Virus record (IMG/VR): IMGVR_UViG_3300028392_001993
Span: 32,001-96,000 of that record
Reading direction: 5' to 3' (one strand)
DNA: 64,000 nucleotides
Source: a virus
The notes beneath the pieces were generated by a model. It ran no database searches, was not told where the DNA came from, and was given only the letters and a program-made list of their open reading frames with translations. Shown here in pieces: positions 12,890 through 34,047 of the stretch (its first letter is position 1; each line of letters starts with the position of its first letter). Both the position numbers and the translations under genes were made by a program.

Positions 12890-13069
12890 ATGAGCCGGAC
12901 ATTGATCTGGGTGTTGAGTTGGAGTGTGTTAGGACCAGTGCCTGAGTCGGGCGAACAAGCCAAGTTCAAAACTCAAGCAGAATGCGAACAGGCTCGAGTT
13001 CAAAAGCGTGAAGAATACCAGGCACAGAAAAAACAGATTGTGGCTAGTTGTCACCAGAGTACCAAATAG
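12890..13069 (+). CDS. 59-aa hypothetical protein, absent from the ORF track
   Basis: After late promoter and AGGA RBS; F.T.AEC motif. Confidence 0.6.
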   Translation: MSRTLIWVLSWSVLGPVPESGEQAKFKTQAECEQARVQKREEYQAQKKQIVASCHQSTK

Positions 13070-13070
13070 T

Positions 13071-13099
13071 TTGACATCAAATCAATTTTGTGGTATAAT
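13071..13099 (+). promoter_or_regulatory. Sigma70-type promoter of the tmRNA gene
   Basis: TTGACA-N17-TATAAT with overlapping TAAATA. Confidence 0.8.
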
Positions 13100-13105
13100 A
13101 AATAC

Positions 13106-13441
13106 TTGAACAGCGTAAACTGTTACTGAGAAAAGGATTCAAGACCCGGGGGCAGTGCCCGGCAGGTCCACCATAAGCATACTTAAATCTCTACAAAACC
13201 GAAAGGTTGGGATCAGGGCTGGTACACCGGATTACTCTAGGGAAACCTATAAGTGCGGATAGACCATAGTATGCTTTTGATGGGCCTGACACAGGATCGA
13301 TTGGGTCAAGAGTACAAGTAATGGCGCTCGGTAGGCGATGACCGTTAATCAAGCAAAACAAGTATCTGCAAACGATGATACATACCTCTTAGCCGCAAAC
13401 GCCTAAGAGCGAGGCAGTTATGCCTTGTAACCAAAAATAGC
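13106..13441 (+). ncRNA. ssrA: Circularly permuted (two-piece) tmRNA: acceptor piece ~13106-13173, intervening segment 13174-13281, coding piece from 13282, tag ORF 13368-13406 (ANDDTYLLAANA*)
   Basis: CAGGTCC-A-CCA pairs with downstream GGGCCTG including G3:U70; T-arm CCGGG-GGCAGTG-CCCGG; GCA resume codon with an AND...LAA tag. Confidence 0.9.
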
Positions 13442-13466
13442 AATAGGGACTTCGGTCCCTATTTTT
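13442..13466 (+). terminator. Intrinsic terminator after tmRNA
   Basis: AATAGGGAC-TTCG-GTCCCTATT-TTT. Confidence 0.85.
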
Positions 13467-14601: not shown

Positions 14602-14766
14602 ATGCAACATGCTATCAAATGTGACAATTGGGGAAAACCCGGCAAAAATGAAGTGGTGAGATTCATGCCTGTTAACTTGGCCAGGTTTAGAAACTGCCCA
14701 GACTGTGATCGTAAACGAATCACTGCTTGCAAAGATCCTGCTTGCAATCGAACCCGAAAGCCTTGA
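14602..14766 (+). CDS. 54-aa Cys-rich (CPDC...C...C) micro-protein, absent from the ORF track
   Basis: AAGGAG RBS; MQHAIKCDNWGK...NCPDCDRKRITACKDPACNRTRKP. Confidence 0.65.
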   Translation: MQHAIKCDNWGKPGKNEVVRFMPVNLARFRNCPDCDRKRITACKDPACNRTRKP

Positions 14767-14926
14767 CTCTTATACAATTCTCATATATAATACACTTATG
14801 AAACAAACAACTACAATCGTTACAATCGTTCGCTCAGAACATGAGTGGGATTGCCATTGGGGGCTTTGCCTGTAATACGAAAGTACTACCCTGCAAAGAC
14901 CCTCCACTTCGGAGGGTTTTCTTTTT
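14763..14926 (+). promoter_or_regulatory. Attenuator-like unit A: promoter, leaderless 25-aa leader ORF (14798-14875), antiterminator and terminator (14895-14926)
   Basis: TTGACT-N17-TATAAT; leader MKQTTTIVTIVRSEHEWDCHWGLCL; GGGGGCTTTGC (14859-14869) complementary to GCAAAGACCC; terminator GACCCTCC-ACTTC-GGAGGGTT followed by a U-tract. Confidence 0.7.
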
Positions 14927-14931
14927 AGTGC

Positions 14932-14960
14932 TAGACCATAAATTGAAACTCTGCTACAAT
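14932..14960 (+). promoter_or_regulatory. Second sigma70-type promoter upstream of the ncRNA/tRNA block
   Basis: TAGACC-N17-TACAAT with TG extension. Confidence 0.55.
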
Positions 14961-15048
14961 AGAACTTAACAAAGCAACAAAGTAGATCGATACTAGTTGT
15001 AACAGATCTTTAAAAATCGTATTTCATTTAGTCCTGGTAACAGGGACT

Positions 15049-15269
15049 ATATGAGAACACATTAGGGTTACCAGACCCGTTAGAGGCATTGGTAGAAGTG
15101 AATTGACACCGGCGGGTGTCCACTTGCTACCAGTCATGAAGCCGGCTCTCTACTGTAAAAAGTAGATCCAGAAAAGCGGCGGATCGTCTGGCAGTAATGA
15201 CCGTGGTGACTTGGTCTCGCAAGCCAAGCAGAACGAGATCCACAACGGTTCCCAAATGTTTTTTCATAT
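15049..15269 (+). ncRNA. Structured spacer RNA E1 (~220 nt), unknown family
   Basis: Closing helix ATATGAGAACACATT/AATGTTTTTTCATAT plus internal hairpins; abuts tRNA-Glu. Confidence 0.6.
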
Positions 15270-15345
15270 GGTGGGTTCATCTAGAGGCCTAGGATAGTGC
15301 CCTTTCACGGCATTCACACCGGTTCGAATCCGGTACCCACTACCA
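15270..15345 (+). tRNA. trnE-UUC: tRNA-Glu (UUC)
   Basis: Cloverleaf, GTGCC-CTTTCAC-GGCAT, CCA. Confidence 0.92.
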
Positions 15346-15782
15346 TACGAAAACACACTGGAGATAAGCAGGAACTTGTGGCCACGAGGTCGCCTCGTCC
15401 AGTGTGTTTTTATATGGTCACTATATAGAAATACATTGCCGAGGAGCGACGTCTTTACCATGGGCTCCGACCATAAAGAGAGGTAGTGTGTTTCTATATA
15501 GCAATCATATAGAAGTATTCTTGGCATAAGTCAAAGCGAGAGAAGAAGCCTAGTATCTGCAGATGCGAAAGTTTCAGTGGTGCAAGTCCCCTCCTAGGCC
15601 TGCTGTTGAGAGTGCTTCTATATGGTAGATGTTATAGTCAAGCATCGATAAGGTATCGTGTATGGACGCATACACTATTCGGGTCACAGCGGCCGGCGAC
15701 TGATCCTAATATAACTGCATCGGCTTTTGCACTCTTAGCGGAGGACGCATAAATTGGCATTCTCGGTGCTTGACTATGATAT
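15343..15782 (+). ncRNA. Tandem array of four stem-closed structured elements E2-E5 (15343-15417, 15421-15501, 15506-15624, 15629-15782)
   Basis: Each is closed by a 15-20 bp helix with related arm sequences and compensatory changes; interiors differ and contain hairpins. Confidence 0.65.
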
Positions 15783-15785
15783 TTT

Positions 15786-15860
15786 GGTCTGATAGTATAT
15801 CGGTTAGTATCCCACACTGTCACTGTGGGGAGACGGGTTCGATTCCCGTTCAGACCGCCA
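15786..15860 (+). tRNA. trnD-GUC: tRNA-Asp (GUC)
   Basis: Cloverleaf, CCACA-CTGTCAC-TGTGG, CCA. Confidence 0.92.
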
Positions 15861-15861
15861 A

Positions 15862-16178
15862 GTTTGAAGCCACACCGCCTGGGCACTTCTCTCAGTAATG
15901 AGACACTAGGTCCTGCAACCGTGGCTTCTCCCCAACGTTCCAGCGTCACTGGATAGTCTGACCCAGACGATGAGAAGTGTGATGACACACACGGGTGGTT
16001 CTGAAACGGCGAAGTTTCACTGAGCAATCAGCGGTCTAACCTAACCGGCGTTGGCAATACGAGAACGGTCCCTGTCGAGAAGCGGGTGGAAGGTGTGACG
16101 AAAATACTTGTGTGGCAGTCCATGACGAGCCTAACAAATTTTCTATCTCACTATAATTACCGCCGGGGGACGCAGAGC
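15862..16178 (+). ncRNA. Large ornate ncRNA candidate (~310 nt), family unassigned
   Basis: At least 7 hairpins (GNRA loops) and long-range complementarities in a GC-richer, non-coding tract. Confidence 0.6.
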
Positions 16179-16184
16179 ACTTGA

Positions 16185-16421
16185 TCAAGCAGTGTGCTGA
16201 GCATTTGCGTACTCAATCCATTCTGAATTGATCTTGCCAGCATCGCCATTGTGAGATGCAGGGTCTGCATCGGGGTTGGCATTTTTCCATTCATTGTAAA
16301 CTTTAGTGGCTTCGTGCCAGTTTTGTTCACGAGCGGCATCATCTTTTATCCACGCATCAAAATCAAGTTTACCGTCATCAAATGTCCAAACACGTTTGTT
16401 AAAATCTGTCCAAGTTGCCAT
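16185..16421 (-). CDS. 78-aa Trp/Asp/Asn-rich small protein
   Basis: AGGAG RBS on minus strand; directly downstream of a radical SAM gene. Confidence 0.7.
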   Translation of the reverse strand: MATWTDFNKRVWTFDDGKLDFDAWIKDDAAREQNWHEATKVYNEWKNANPDADPASHNGDAGKINSEWIEYANAQHTA

Positions 16422-24269: not shown

Positions 24270-24455
24270 AAAGTGCAACAGGAAACGCGGTCCTGTGCCT
24301 CACTCAAAACCGGCACAAACGGGCGGCCTCGGGGATGGCTTGTGTTCTTGTACATAAAAAAATCCGAGCGTATTAAAGCATTCTCTATCTGCAAGGAGAC
24401 AAGTGGGTTCATCCATGAAGAGTGCTTTAGTACACGCATTCCAAAGAGTGCGTAA
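24270..24455 (+). ncRNA. Structured non-coding tract including stem-closed element E6 (24370-24433)
   Basis: GTATTAAAGCATTCT/AGAGTGCTTTAGTAC helix; further hairpins ACAGGA/TCCTGT and ACGCATT/AGTGCGT. Confidence 0.5.
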
Positions 24456-24462
24456 ATACTTT

Positions 24463-25053
24463 ATGGAAATTATTGTTCACAAGCATTTTACTATCAGATC
24501 CGATGCTGATGTACTCAAACAATACAACACTCCAATCTGGGAAGTTGAGATCCGATCTGACATAATAGACTCGTCTGAGTTTGAGTCTGCATTGCGGTGC
24601 GATGATAATTTTCAAATGAATCCAGGACATAACTCTTTCTTGCGTGGTGCTTGTAACAGAACTGGAGCAGTTGCTGATTTGTTAAACGAGTCCCAGCAAG
24701 GGTTTTTGCTAGACCTTGTGTCCGAAACACCAGAATTTAAATCTAGATATCCTCGTAAAGATCAATATCAAACAAAAACACATTGGTTTGCTGATATAAT
24801 TAGGGATCAAGCAGGATTTGCTATGGGGCCGCATATTGACAATAGTCATATCATGGTGCAGATGGTGGTTAATTTGTTGCAAGACAATACAACCGCAACA
24901 GAATTTTATCAGTTTAACAATTCAGTGCCGTATTATCGTGCGCCACTCAAACGCAATCAAGGTATAGTGTTTGTGAACACCCCCGGCGCTGTACACAGAA
25001 TCGCCAACATTGATCAAACACGTTGGATCTTGTATGGTGGTCTAACAATATAA
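24463..25053 (+). CDS. 2OG-Fe(II) oxygenase-like protein
   Basis: GPHIDN (HxD), AVHRI...TRWI; TAAATA 4 nt before ATG. Confidence 0.65.
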   Translation: MEIIVHKHFTIRSDADVLKQYNTPIWEVEIRSDIIDSSEFESALRCDDNFQMNPGHNSFLRGACNRTGAVADLLNESQQGFLLDLVSETPEFKSRYPRKDQYQTKTHWFADIIRDQAGFAMGPHIDNSHIMVQMVVNLLQDNTTATEFYQFNNSVPYYRAPLKRNQGIVFVNTPGAVHRIANIDQTRWILYGGLTI

Positions 25054-29263: not shown

Positions 29264-29337
29264 GGGGGTGAAACTTTAAGGTGAAGTAACTGGCTTTTAA
29301 CCAGTAAAACTCGGATCGTTCCCGAGCACCCCTACCA
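29264..29337 (+). tRNA. trnK-UUU: tRNA-Lys (UUU), variant T-loop
   Basis: ACTGG-CTTTTAA-CCAGT; T-loop ATCGTTC; CCA. Confidence 0.85.
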
Positions 29338-29376
29338 TATAAAAACACATTTGACAACCAGGGTGTTTTTATATGG
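29335..29376 (+). repeat. Minimal stem-closed spacer element E7 between tRNA-Lys and tRNA-His
   Basis: CCATATAAAAACAC...GTGTTTTTATATGG, same arm family as E1-E5. Confidence 0.7.
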
Positions 29377-29451
29377 TGCGTGTCGTCAAGTGGTTAAGAC
29401 CTCGGATTGTGATTCCGATACACGTGGGTTCGAATCCCATCATGCACCCCA
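29375..29451 (+). tRNA. trnH-GUG: tRNA-His (GUG)
   Basis: G-1:C73, TCGGA-TTGTGAT-TCCGA, CCA. Confidence 0.92.
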
Positions 29452-29632: not shown

Positions 29633-30130
29633 ATGTCTACAGAGTTAAATAAAAGGCAAATGATGAAAAAACTAGACATTGACCAAGTGGCAGCGTTTAT
29701 CCGTGGCCAAACTCCCGAAACTCGAATCTATCTTGGTTGTGATAGTGAACGTGTGAAAGTTGACGGTAAATGGTATGCTGATTACATTCTTGCTATTGTA
29801 GTCCACATCAACGGCAACAACGGTTGCAAACTGTTTGGTGAAGTACAACGTGAACGCGACTGGGATCAACGGGCATCACGGCCAGCGTTGCGATTAATGA
29901 CCGAAGTTTACAAAGTAAGTGAATTATACTTGAAACTTGAAGAAGTGCTAGACGGTCGTGAGGTTGAAGTCCATCTTGATATTAACCCAGACGAGATGTA
30001 TGGCTCAAGTTGTGTGATCAGCCAAGCCGTTGGTTACATCAAAGGTGTATGCAATGTTATACCTTTTGTCAAGCCAGAAGCGTTTGCGGCTAGTTATGCC
30101 GCAGATAGATTCAAGAGTCTAGCGGCATAA
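29633..30130 (+). CDS. RNase H-like YkuK/DUF458 family protein
   Basis: IYLGCDS...AIVVH...LMTEV...EVHLDIN...VKPEAFAASYAAD; true start probably 29660-29663. Confidence 0.75.
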   Translation: MSTELNKRQMMKKLDIDQVAAFIRGQTPETRIYLGCDSERVKVDGKWYADYILAIVVHINGNNGCKLFGEVQRERDWDQRASRPALRLMTEVYKVSELYLKLEEVLDGREVEVHLDINPDEMYGSSCVISQAVGYIKGVCNVIPFVKPEAFAASYAADRFKSLAA

Positions 30131-32326: not shown

Positions 32327-32635
32327 GTGTATATGAGCAACGATCTAGCCAAATTTATAAACTCAAAACGGCGCCACAAAACAGATGTGGCGATTTCAAG
32401 ACAAGTAAAGATTGCCCAATCACACAATACATTTAATCAGACCAATATCAAACAACCACATAGACTGGCCAAACGCCATGCTATGGATTGTGGGAATCCC
32501 GGTTGTTTCTTGTGCGGTAACCCACGCAAGACACACAAGGATAGATTGACTCAGCAAGAAAAACGACTGTTTCAAGACGTAGGAAAAACTTCAGATCGAC
32601 ACTCAAACGGATTACCAAAGGACCAAGATGAATAA
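32327..32635 (+). CDS. Basic hypothetical protein with HAMDCGNPGCFLCGNPR motif
   Basis: Cys/His cluster, ATGA overlap downstream. Confidence 0.7.
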   Translation: MYMSNDLAKFINSKRRHKTDVAISRQVKIAQSHNTFNQTNIKQPHRLAKRHAMDCGNPGCFLCGNPRKTHKDRLTQQEKRLFQDVGKTSDRHSNGLPKDQDE

Positions 32636-32918
32636 CGTACAAAACATTCAAGACGCAATCAGATATGAATCAACACTGGGGCTCAGCAATGAAGCCGCAG
32701 TTGAGGCAGTAGAAAACCGTTACGACCTAGTGCTGATTGGTGCTCGTCGTGCTAGAGAACTAGGCCGCGGCGACAAGCCAAAGATTGATGGTCCTAAACA
32801 CAGTGCAGTAGTCACGGCTCTCAAAGAAATTGAACACCGACTAATTGGCCGTGATTATTTGTACAAGCAGTTGGATATTGAACCACGTCGACGTTACAAG
32901 GAATATGGCGGATTCTGA
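32628..32918 (+). CDS. rpoZ: RNA polymerase omega subunit homologue
   Basis: AVEAVENRYDLVLIGARRAREL...VVTALKEIE matches the omega NR(F/Y)DLVL.AARRAR.L...ALREIE signature. Confidence 0.8.
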   Translation: MNNVQNIQDAIRYESTLGLSNEAAVEAVENRYDLVLIGARRARELGRGDKPKIDGPKHSAVVTALKEIEHRLIGRDYLYKQLDIEPRRRYKEYGGF

Positions 32919-33441: not shown

Positions 33442-34047
33442 ATGCCAGCAGTATTTTTAGTTAGTGATACACACTTTGGACATGCCGGTGTCTGTCGCTT
33501 CACGCACCCAGATGATCCTGAGGTGAAATTGCGTCCCTGGACTGATCCTGATGAGATGGACGAGGAGATGGTACGGCGGTGGAACGATCGTGTTCGTCCC
33601 AACGACAAGGTGTACCACTTGGGTGACGTTGTTATTAACCGCAAAGCATTGAAGACATTGGCACGTTTGAATGGTGACAAAGTGTTGATCCGTGGCAACC
33701 ACGACATCTTCCGTGATGACGAATACCGCGAATACTTCCGCGAGTTACGTGCATACCATGTGATGAACGGCATGATCTTGAGTCACATTCCTGTGCATGA
33801 GGCTTCGTTGGGTCGCTTTGGTGTTAACATTCACGGACATCTGCATGCCACCAGAGTAAAGAAAGCCCGCGGTGTAGATGCCAAGACCGGTGCTACATTG
33901 TACAGCACTGAGATTGATCCGCGGTACTGGTGTGCTTGTGTTGAGCAAACCGACTTTGCACCTATCTTGTTTGAAGATGCTATCAAACGCATTGAAGCAG
34001 AAGGCGGTCATATCGGCTTCAAGAGCGGCAATGGTCCTACTATGTAA
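33442..34047 (+). CDS. Calcineurin-like metallophosphoesterase
   Basis: SDTHFGH, YHLGDV, RGNHD, LSH, IHGHLH motifs. Confidence 0.9.
   Translation: MPAVFLVSDTHFGHAGVCRFTHPDDPEVKLRPWTDPDEMDEEMVRRWNDRVRPNDKVYHLGDVVINRKALKTLARLNGDKVLIRGNHDIFRDDEYREYFRELRAYHVMNGMILSHIPVHEASLGRFGVNIHGHLHATRVKKARGVDAKTGATLYSTEIDPRYWCACVEQTDFAPILFEDAIKRIEAEGGHIGFKSGNGPTM

Follow-up and report, generated by a model that had tools for sequence, protein, structure and literature searches.

The species 1 and species 2 RNAs of phage T4 (rnaC and rnaD) are stable small RNAs made from a phage tRNA operon, and we know of no constant closing stem or exchangeable types among them. The tRNA region of phage T5 contains RNAIII, RNAI, RNAIV, and RNA2H, all annotated as "stable RNA with unknown functions" (NC_005859). 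Here we describe a group of hairpin-closed cassettes in the tRNA arrays of an uncultured lake phage. The DNA studied is a 64,000-nucleotide (nt) stretch, hereafter the window, comprising bases 32001 to 96000 of a 178,197-base-pair (bp) IMG/VR virus contig (IMGVR_UViG_3300028392_001993); positions are those of the window unless another locus is named. Four of its elements, E2, E3, E4, and E7, are significant members of one hairpin family, in which a common closing helix (the clamp) surrounds a variable interior (the cargo), and this family is large and phage-only.

A covariance model of the clamp, named R1, was built from its two arms (19 pairs) and trained on 110 copies from other phages. T5 RNAIII resembles E7 and E2 in that a 17-bp terminal stem begins directly behind the CCA of RNAI and extends to the UGG in front of tRNA-His, with the ends of the T5 RNAs taken from the annotation. 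It shows no significant similarity to the clamp, either in sequence or by R1 (10.3 bits, expectation value [E] of 5.7; no match in the T5 genome at an E of ≤1). T5 also lacks a closing stem that recurs unchanged from copy to copy, and exchange of cargo is not known there. An earlier note on this DNA, made from the letters alone, had drawn a parallel to T4 RNA C/D, which is apt as an analogy but does not extend beyond it. By the same kind of analogy, T5 RNAIII is the closer tested counterpart.

When run on the window, R1 matched E2, E3, E4, and E7 with E values from 5e-9 to 5e-5, and in all four the plus strand outscored the minus strand. The cassettes and the tRNA genes around them are located as follows.

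15269..15345, plus strand: tRNA-Glu(UUC), whose ACCA end forms the first pairs of E2.
15342..15418, plus strand: E2, clamp cassette with a 41-nt interior (R1 score of 49.6 bits, E of 5e-9; folding z score of -5.1).
15421..15501, plus strand: E3, clamp cassette with a 47-nt interior (R1 score of 38.5 bits; folding z score of -6.1).
15504..15626, plus strand: E4, clamp cassette with an arm sub-variant and an 87-nt structured interior (R1 score of 32.5 bits).
15786..15860, plus strand: tRNA-Asp(GUC), the last element of this block.
29264..29337, plus strand: tRNA-Lys(UUU), whose ACCA end forms the first pairs of E7.
29334..29377, plus strand: E7, an "empty" clamp with an 8-nt loop (R1 score of 45.8 bits; folding z score of -5.2).

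The arms that the earlier note had quoted were all found in place, each 5' arm being complementary to its own 3' arm, and the use of tRNA ends as part of the helix was also borne out. E2 opens on the ACCA of tRNA-Glu, and the helix of E7 reaches from the ACCA of tRNA-Lys to G-1, G+1, and U2 of tRNA-His. E3 and E4 are preceded by another cassette and not by a tRNA, like the tandem copies in loci L042 and L003. Folding gave closing helices of 17 to 23 bp for E2, E3, E4, and E7 and for two neighboring elements, E1 and E5, that are considered below; the z scores of the six ranged from -3.5 to -6.1, and none of 200 dinucleotide shuffles folded as well. In the window, 14 and 13 matches to the two consensus arms were counted where 3.7 and 2.9 were expected, a level reached in none of 100 shuffles. 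Arm-like 15-mers were 4 to 5 times commoner than in shuffled sequence and clustered at 15049-15623 and 29337-29374.

More than 170 phage contigs of IMG/VR carry the clamp family, almost without exception within tRNA arrays. An exact 17-nt arm pattern matched more than 120 IMG/VR contigs, and a complementary arm lay 4 to 283 nt away in 117 of 120 loci. The loci found in this way form our first set (183 copies, oriented by tRNA strand); tRNA arrays account for 118 of 121 loci and comprise 1,958 tRNAs, the CCA being encoded in 1,910 of them. The consensus arms are CCAUAUAAAAACACAUU and AGUGUGUUUCUAUAUGG. The 5' arm starts exactly on the tRNA CCA in 123 of the 183 copies, and in 55 copies the GG that ends the 3' arm coincides with, or directly precedes, the start of the following tRNA. 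The helix has a median length of 20 bp (interquartile range, 19 to 21) and often runs onto U72-A73 of the upstream tRNA, and TA is frequent at both flanks of the element. A second set of 80 loci was picked by a neighboring protein of family PF04308, described below, and not by the arms (the best 80 of at least 565 contigs); 54 of these 80 loci had an R1 match, almost always on the strand of the gene and the tRNAs.

Among 185,579 prokaryote species genomes, the two-arm pattern gave a single match, in a 1,478-bp contig (L122; CAZQNP010000058.1) that is probably a mis-binned phage fragment. This contig was binned with a Candidatus Planktophila metagenome-assembled genome, which is too little for naming a host. 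R1 gave nothing significant on the closest cultured relatives of our phage, the jumbo myoviruses PA5oct, Atu_ph07, and Phosso (identity of 49 to 56%; best E of 0.63, in PA5oct). We found the family neither in Rfam nor in the literature searched, the 224-motif paper included. At the gathering score, only tRNA and transfer-messenger RNA (tmRNA) families of Rfam matched the window, and between 14800 and 16200 a search at an E of ≤10 returned noise only, such as plant and animal microRNA precursors on the long hairpins.

The helix is selected in a single strand, in the tRNA sense. Across 110 distinct aligned copies, pairing was seen in 93.4% of cells, and double changes were found in 10 of the 19 pairs (87 cells). 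The covariation score was 0.165 versus 0.091 in shuffles (reached in 0 of 500) and lay far above every slid control. On the tRNA strand, the non-canonical cells comprised 207 G.U or U.G versus 15 A.C, leaving aside pair 8. At pair 8 itself, A.C is found in 112 of the 183 copies, G-C in 29, and A-U in 21. The asymmetric positions, U.G at pair 16 and A.C at pair 8, kept a constant orientation to the tRNAs in all oriented copies; this wobble asymmetry is never reversed, and the orientation of the element relative to the tRNAs is therefore fixed. This pattern of single-strand selection, combined with the register on the CCA, is most naturally read as that of an RNA helix. The pair-8 A.C is absent from the window copies, which have G-C (E3 and E4) or A-U (E7 and E2, and also E1); it is thus a frequent feature of the family and not an obligatory one.

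The cargo is structured, functional RNA that is not bound to its slot. The 177 interior sequences fall into 123 clusters, and identical interior types are found behind different tRNAs. Behind tRNA-Lys alone, 63 clamps carry 48 different cargo clusters, and in 19 of 20 locus pairs whose tRNA-Lys genes are at least 97% identical, the cargo differs. The interior of E2 is identical at 39 of 41 positions in L047 and L061, where it lies behind tRNA-Lys, and is also present in L063 behind tRNA-Gln; its two differences from L047 form one compensated pair. The interior of E3 recurs in L036 and L114, both times behind tRNA-Lys. The E4-type RNA has homologues in 7 other loci, with compensatory changes in 9 of its 39 predicted pairs. 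A stretch of E4 that the earlier note had called T-loop-like is a covarying hairpin with a stem of 3 to 4 bp and a 5-nt loop and is not a T arm. The architecture that the note had put forward, a common double-stranded handle with diverse exchangeable structured RNAs in tRNA operons, selected in a single strand, is upheld by these data.

T-loop motifs are nevertheless enriched in the interiors of the family at large. The GTTCGA hexamer is present in 13 of 123 cluster representatives versus 1.7 expected, and about one-tenth of the interiors have a genuine T-arm motif, which as a rule directly precedes the 3' arm. Of 32 predicted 7-nt hairpin loops in the interiors, 9 are T-loop-like. Mimicry of anticodon loops was considered and rejected, the U33/R37 pattern showing no enrichment (7 of the same 32 loops).

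We compared the window with contigs of related lake populations and found cassette-exact joints with breakpoints in the arms. One joint (15344>15423) removes E2, another (15343>15506) removes E2 and E3, and a third (15491>15616) joins the 3' arm of E3 to that of E4, while one population contig carries E4 behind another tRNA. These joints bear on a suggestion of the earlier note that the arms are DNA recombination sites. In its full form, this would make the arms primarily DNA sites, either attC-like sites in folded single-stranded DNA or the inverted repeats of a miniature element, that shuffle the cassettes, with the RNA as a by-product. Cassettes are indeed deleted and swapped exactly in the populations, and both the occurrence of one interior behind different tRNAs and the differing cargo behind near-identical tRNA-Lys genes are in keeping with such sites, as is the TA often seen at both ends. 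Sites of the attC type also resemble the clamp in their imperfect inverted arms, conserved unpaired positions, variable center, one-strand folding, and cassette exchange, and the conserved mismatch of the clamp fits that architecture.

As a primary function, such a role is nonetheless very unlikely, because the orientation is fixed, G.U and not A.C is tolerated, the arms are in register with the CCA, and a tyrosine recombinase (PF00589) was found in 0 of 10 carrier genomes at least 94% complete. No transposase was noticed among the recurrent neighbor genes. A transposon inserts both ways, whereas the cassettes keep one orientation to the tRNAs, and the supposed repeat opens with the three bases of a functional tRNA CCA. 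In attC sites it is the structure and not the sequence that is conserved, they flank protein genes, and they need IntI, whereas the arms of the clamp start on an RNA landmark. The joints call for nothing beyond homologous recombination or slippage between the repeated arms, and the interiors themselves are selected as RNA structures. A miniature inverted-repeat transposable element was ruled out by the fixed orientation and the ends on the tRNA CCA. A CRISPR array was also rejected: the interiors range from 4 to 283 nt, the arms are inverted around each interior, and no CRISPR repeat matched above noise, in a search that did not extend to cas genes.

We propose instead that the cassettes are stem-capped units cut from the tRNA transcript and that the clamp is a processing and stability handle for RNase P and a host double-strand RNase. 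We consider the chances of this proposal to be about even, because arm conservation, the pair-8 A.C, and the preference for tRNA-Lys, -Gln, and -Glu are left unexplained by it. The cassettes would be transcribed together with the tRNAs, each as a near-invariant clamp of about 20 bp with an exchangeable interior. The 5' arm would open on A73-C74-C75-A76 of the upstream tRNA, preferentially Lys(UUU) and then Gln(UUG) and Glu(UUC), the 3' arm would close on the first bases of the next tRNA or the next cassette, and the interior would be a folded small RNA carried as cargo. The clamp would fold during RNA synthesis. The RNase P cut of the downstream tRNA would fix the 3' boundary, and a host double-strand endonuclease, most likely RNase III, would open the two-turn stem. 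The upstream tRNA would then be trimmed to its CCA and the cargo released as a stable, stem-capped small RNA. Because the clamp is identical everywhere, it would also provide portable homology for the exchange of cargo between phages.

The substrate of bacterial RNase III is double-stranded RNA of about two turns, a length matched by the family median and by the window helices alike. The stems on which RNase III acts in the 16S and 23S leader-trailer RNAs and at T7 R1.1 resemble the clamp in comprising about two turns, in lying within polycistronic stable-RNA or phage transcripts, and in surrounding or separating functional RNAs; the T7 early-RNA sites typically have non-canonical positions about midway along the helix. 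They differ from the clamp in that their sequence is not conserved between distant genomes, whereas the clamp arms are about 96% identical. RNase III was found neither in the contig of the window, which has a CheckV completeness estimate of 51%, nor in 10 near-complete carrier genomes, and the double-strand RNase would therefore be that of the host.

Several observations weigh against the processing model. In phages whose neighboring tRNA-Lys genes share only 77% identity, the arms reach 95.8%, and this conservation points to a sequence-specific partner or to constant recombinational homogenization, neither of which is required by the model. Nor does the model explain the conserved A.C mismatch at pair 8 or account for the preference for Lys, Gln, and Glu slots, and pure cargo delivery does not predict "empty" clamps such as E7 and others with interiors of 4 to 9 nt. 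Most tRNA junctions in the same arrays measure 3 to 10 nt and have no clamp, and the clamp is therefore not needed for tRNA processing as such. Folded single-stranded DNA also tolerates G.T, so that the wobble asymmetry, taken alone, is compatible with a single-stranded DNA structure as well. Finally, the sole RNA library with relevant sequence, a metatranscriptome that contained about 9% of the sampled words, consists of low-depth contigs that cover coding genes too and cannot show RNA ends. One of these contigs, from a lake RNA library, covers 15066-15205, within E1, and the uncovered parts of the cassette block in that library carry no information.

The slot preference is pronounced. Among 124 tRNA-abutting copies of the first set, the upstream tRNA was Lys(UUU) in 63, Gln(UUG) in 21, and Glu(UUC) in 11, so that three types making up about 13% of the tRNAs provide 95 of the 124 abutted ones. 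In the second set, a clamp was found on 35 of 52 tRNA-Lys(UUU), 8 of 56 tRNA-Gln, and 6 of 47 tRNA-Glu genes, with at most 2 for each of the other types. The window keeps to the same rule, with the E2-to-E5 array behind tRNA-Glu(UUC) and E7 behind tRNA-Lys(UUU). A U at position 72 is preferred but does not explain the bias, as 333 U72-A73 tRNAs have no clamp.

This preference speaks for an alternative in which the element serves the upstream tRNA, with pairing of the ACCA delaying or controlling maturation, charging, or exposure of that tRNA and the interior being largely incidental. In all three favored types the wobble U is modified, and anticodon nucleases such as PrrC and PARIS are known to attack tRNA-Lys. 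The bias recurs in two differently chosen sets, empty clamps like E7 are retained, and the helix often reaches U72-A73, all of which would suit a role for the upstream tRNA. On the other side, the interiors are conserved between phages with compensatory changes, 59 of 183 copies abut no tRNA, the tandem E2-E3-E4 has a single tRNA neighbor, and the bias may partly reflect inherited synteny in one phage clade. An antisense action of the interior on the upstream tRNA was rejected, since complementarity between the two was at the level of shuffled sequence (mean z of -0.09, n = 106), and this lack of excess also speaks against a role centered on that tRNA. Taken together, we judge such a role to be improbable.

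The strong conservation of the arms calls attention to a further alternative, namely that the clamp is mainly a sequence-specific docking site for a protein, in the style of Y RNAs and Ro60, with the cargo as the effector or specificity module and processing as a secondary matter. Y RNAs and YrlA RNAs with Ro60 (RF00019, RF02553) are described (PMC4201824) as having a conserved terminal stem with an irregularity and a variable, sometimes tRNA-like, module. An arm conservation beyond the need for pairing, a non-canonical A.C kept at pair 8 in most copies, and the enrichment of T-arm-like modules in the interiors, as in tRNA-like YrlA RNAs, would all be expected of a docking site. The cassettes differ from Y and YrlA RNAs in that neither RF00019 nor RF02553 matched at 14800-16200 (at an E of up to 10) or in the whole window (at the gathering score).

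A candidate partner is encoded in the window, at the following position.

29633..30127, plus strand: RNase H-like gene of family PF04308 (YkuK/DUF458; phrog_11311), 165 amino acids, located in the tRNA array between tRNA-Leu and tRNA-Gly.

The PF04308 protein, which has invariant acidic and histidine residues, is the commonest neighbor gene of the clamp loci and is encoded in at least 565 IMG/VR contigs. Of the best 80 PF04308 loci, 75 lie in tRNA arrays, and 1,574 of 1,574 tRNAs are on the strand of the gene. Its location in the same arrays, always on the tRNA strand, favors docking, and it is a candidate RNA-processing enzyme of these arrays. The function of the family is unassigned (PMC3985635). 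An AlphaFold model of the window protein (predicted local distance difference test [pLDDT] score of 83) revealed a generic RNase H-like fold only, with matches to Argonaute PIWI, RNase H1, and endonuclease V (Z of ∼8; Foldseek E no better than 1e-3), and no specificity could be read from these structure matches.

PF04308 is a frequent and not a universal companion of the clamp: 15 of 20 carrier records have it, as do 8 of the 10 with a completeness of at least 90%. The Ro-like DUF2828/DUF7788 protein (phrog_850) was found in 5 of 20 carrier records and in just 2 of the 10 near-complete ones. The contig of the window has no dsRBD, CCA-adding enzyme, or RtcB, and no TROVE domain that would mark a Ro60-type partner. 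No phage protein that strictly co-occurs with the clamp was found, and a dedicated factor would therefore more likely come from the host. In view of these data, we regard docking as the main function of the clamp as unlikely.

A further reading of the cassettes concerns defense. The clamps could form an integron-like RNA toolkit for counter-defense, in which each docks hypervariable small RNAs as decoys, inhibitors, or sponges behind replacement tRNAs and the cargo is swapped between co-infecting phages by recombination at the identical arms. The targets would be host defenses that attack tRNAs or are guided by RNA, and the slots would lie behind tRNA-Lys(UUU), -Gln(UUG), and -Glu(UUC) as those most attacked by anticodon nucleases. 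If this were true, the approximately 120 cargo types in approximately 180 copies would be the trace of an arms race. We hold this to be a speculative reading with little probability.

Other elements listed together with the cassettes in the earlier note fared differently. They are located as follows.

15046..15272, plus strand: E1, with family-like arms (15046-15063 and 15255-15272) and a structured interior of about 190 nt (fold of -87 kcal/mol, z score of -4.4).
15632..15780, plus strand: E5, structured RNA (∼150 nt) closed by a 20-bp helix of its own, directly upstream of tRNA-Asp; no R1 match.
24365..24438, plus strand: E6, hairpin with loosely similar arms (R1 score of 13.3 bits, E of 1.2).
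13067-13444: permuted two-piece tmRNA gene (Rfam match, scoring as the alpha or the generic permuted type).
13168..13286, plus strand: intervening segment of the tmRNA, whose stem connects the CCA with the 5' end of the following RNA (R1 score of 11.5 bits, E of 3.1).

E1 does have the family-like arms for which it had been counted as a cassette, and the final G of its 3' arm is the first base of tRNA-Glu, but R1 gives no match and the interior is found elsewhere without those arms. This interior (15064-15254) is 97% identical in L124 and 84% identical in L123, the closest relatives, where the flanks differ, and a joint in the population data swaps 15016-15065 for 10 other letters. In light of these copies with other flanks and of the joint, we conclude that the E1 interior is an independent RNA gene that has been placed in a clamp in this phage. 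A 40-nt core of the same interior (∼15167-15205) is also present in six further loci.

E5 had likewise been assigned to the family. It turned out to be a distinct conserved RNA with arms of its own that covary across 9 phages. Compensatory changes were seen in 14 of its 46 predicted pairs among the 9 homologues, with 5 of these in the closing helix, 3 of them to Watson-Crick pairs. The E5-type RNA always lies immediately upstream of a tRNA-Asp-like start.

The R1 score of E6 is not significant, and membership of this hairpin, a mere look-alike, is unsupported. Its 15-bp stem with two U.G pairs encloses the Shine-Dalgarno sequence and the GTG start of an open reading frame at 24403-25053, and E6 looks like a hairpin for translational control rather than a cassette.

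The relation of the tmRNA intervening segment to the family, also suggested by the note, is restricted to the layout, its R1 score not being significant. The intervening segments of permuted tmRNAs (RF04321, RF01849, RF01850) resemble the clamp cassettes as variable, stem-closed segments that run from a CCA to the next mature RNA and that host processing removes. Unlike the clamp, they occupy one site per gene and belong to the tmRNA. In related populations, the segment is swapped for other sequence (joints at 13173-13278).

Downstream of tRNA-Asp, the plus strand of 15861-16145 contains three modules of about 70 nt (∼15861-15932, 15934-15999, and 16035-16097). Each is 75 to 94% conserved in at least 25 other phage loci, with no tRNA call and no Rfam match, and these modules are probably further non-tRNA RNAs of the array. 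Upstream of the block, a consensus scan alone gave two promoter candidates.

14763-14791: the stronger promoter candidate, followed by a terminator-like hairpin at 14896-14920.
14932..14960, plus strand: sigma-70-like promoter candidate with an extended -10 element, upstream of the block formed by E1, tRNA-Glu, the cassettes, and tRNA-Asp.

In the tRNA arrays of two related phages, we also observed GOLLD RNA (RF02032; 197 to 211 bits) at L169:9062-9615 and L181:11108-11642. In both, a clamp-type hairpin starts a few bases from the 3' end of GOLLD, with the outer arm altered on both sides and pairing kept. GOLLD had no match in the contig of the window. Other genes that recur in these tRNA arrays (L001-L120 and L123-L202) encode a metallophosphoesterase (33442-34044 in the window), an RNA polymerase omega/Rpb6-like protein (32628-32915 in the window), dCMP-deaminase-like and dual-specificity phosphatase-like proteins, HNH endonucleases, and the DUF2828/DUF7788 protein, annotated as an "RNA-binding protein."

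The portal protein of the phage is of the T4 superfamily. The GC content is 43.7%, and the window has 23 tRNA genes in addition to the tmRNA gene. The contig was seen again in freshwater and lake metagenomes from several studies. A search of 50,697 phage records found no DNA similar to the window, and relatives sought through a neighboring radical-SAM gene gave none. The two-piece tmRNA of the closest relatives (L124:498-813 and L133:439-804) scores as the betaproteobacterial type (112 to 139 bits), which may be taken as a weak hint of a freshwater betaproteobacterial host.

Phage tRNA arrays are now read mainly as a tRNA supply that escapes host tRNA-cleaving defenses. The same operons have a second, very diverse payload, in which at least 100 kinds of structured small RNA share a constant stem. 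If the clamp is a processing handle, it would be a natural and re-usable counterpart of engineered tRNA-flanked RNA expression arrays. If it is a docking site, it would define a new phage ribonucleoprotein, and if the cargo acts against defense, the family would constitute a rich and so far unexploited source of RNA inhibitors. The clamp family gives access to an old question, the role of the stable RNAs of the T4 and T5 tRNA clusters. Its natural variants number in the hundreds, and its preference for the slots that follow tRNA-Lys, -Gln, and -Glu is a clear rule that genetics can test.

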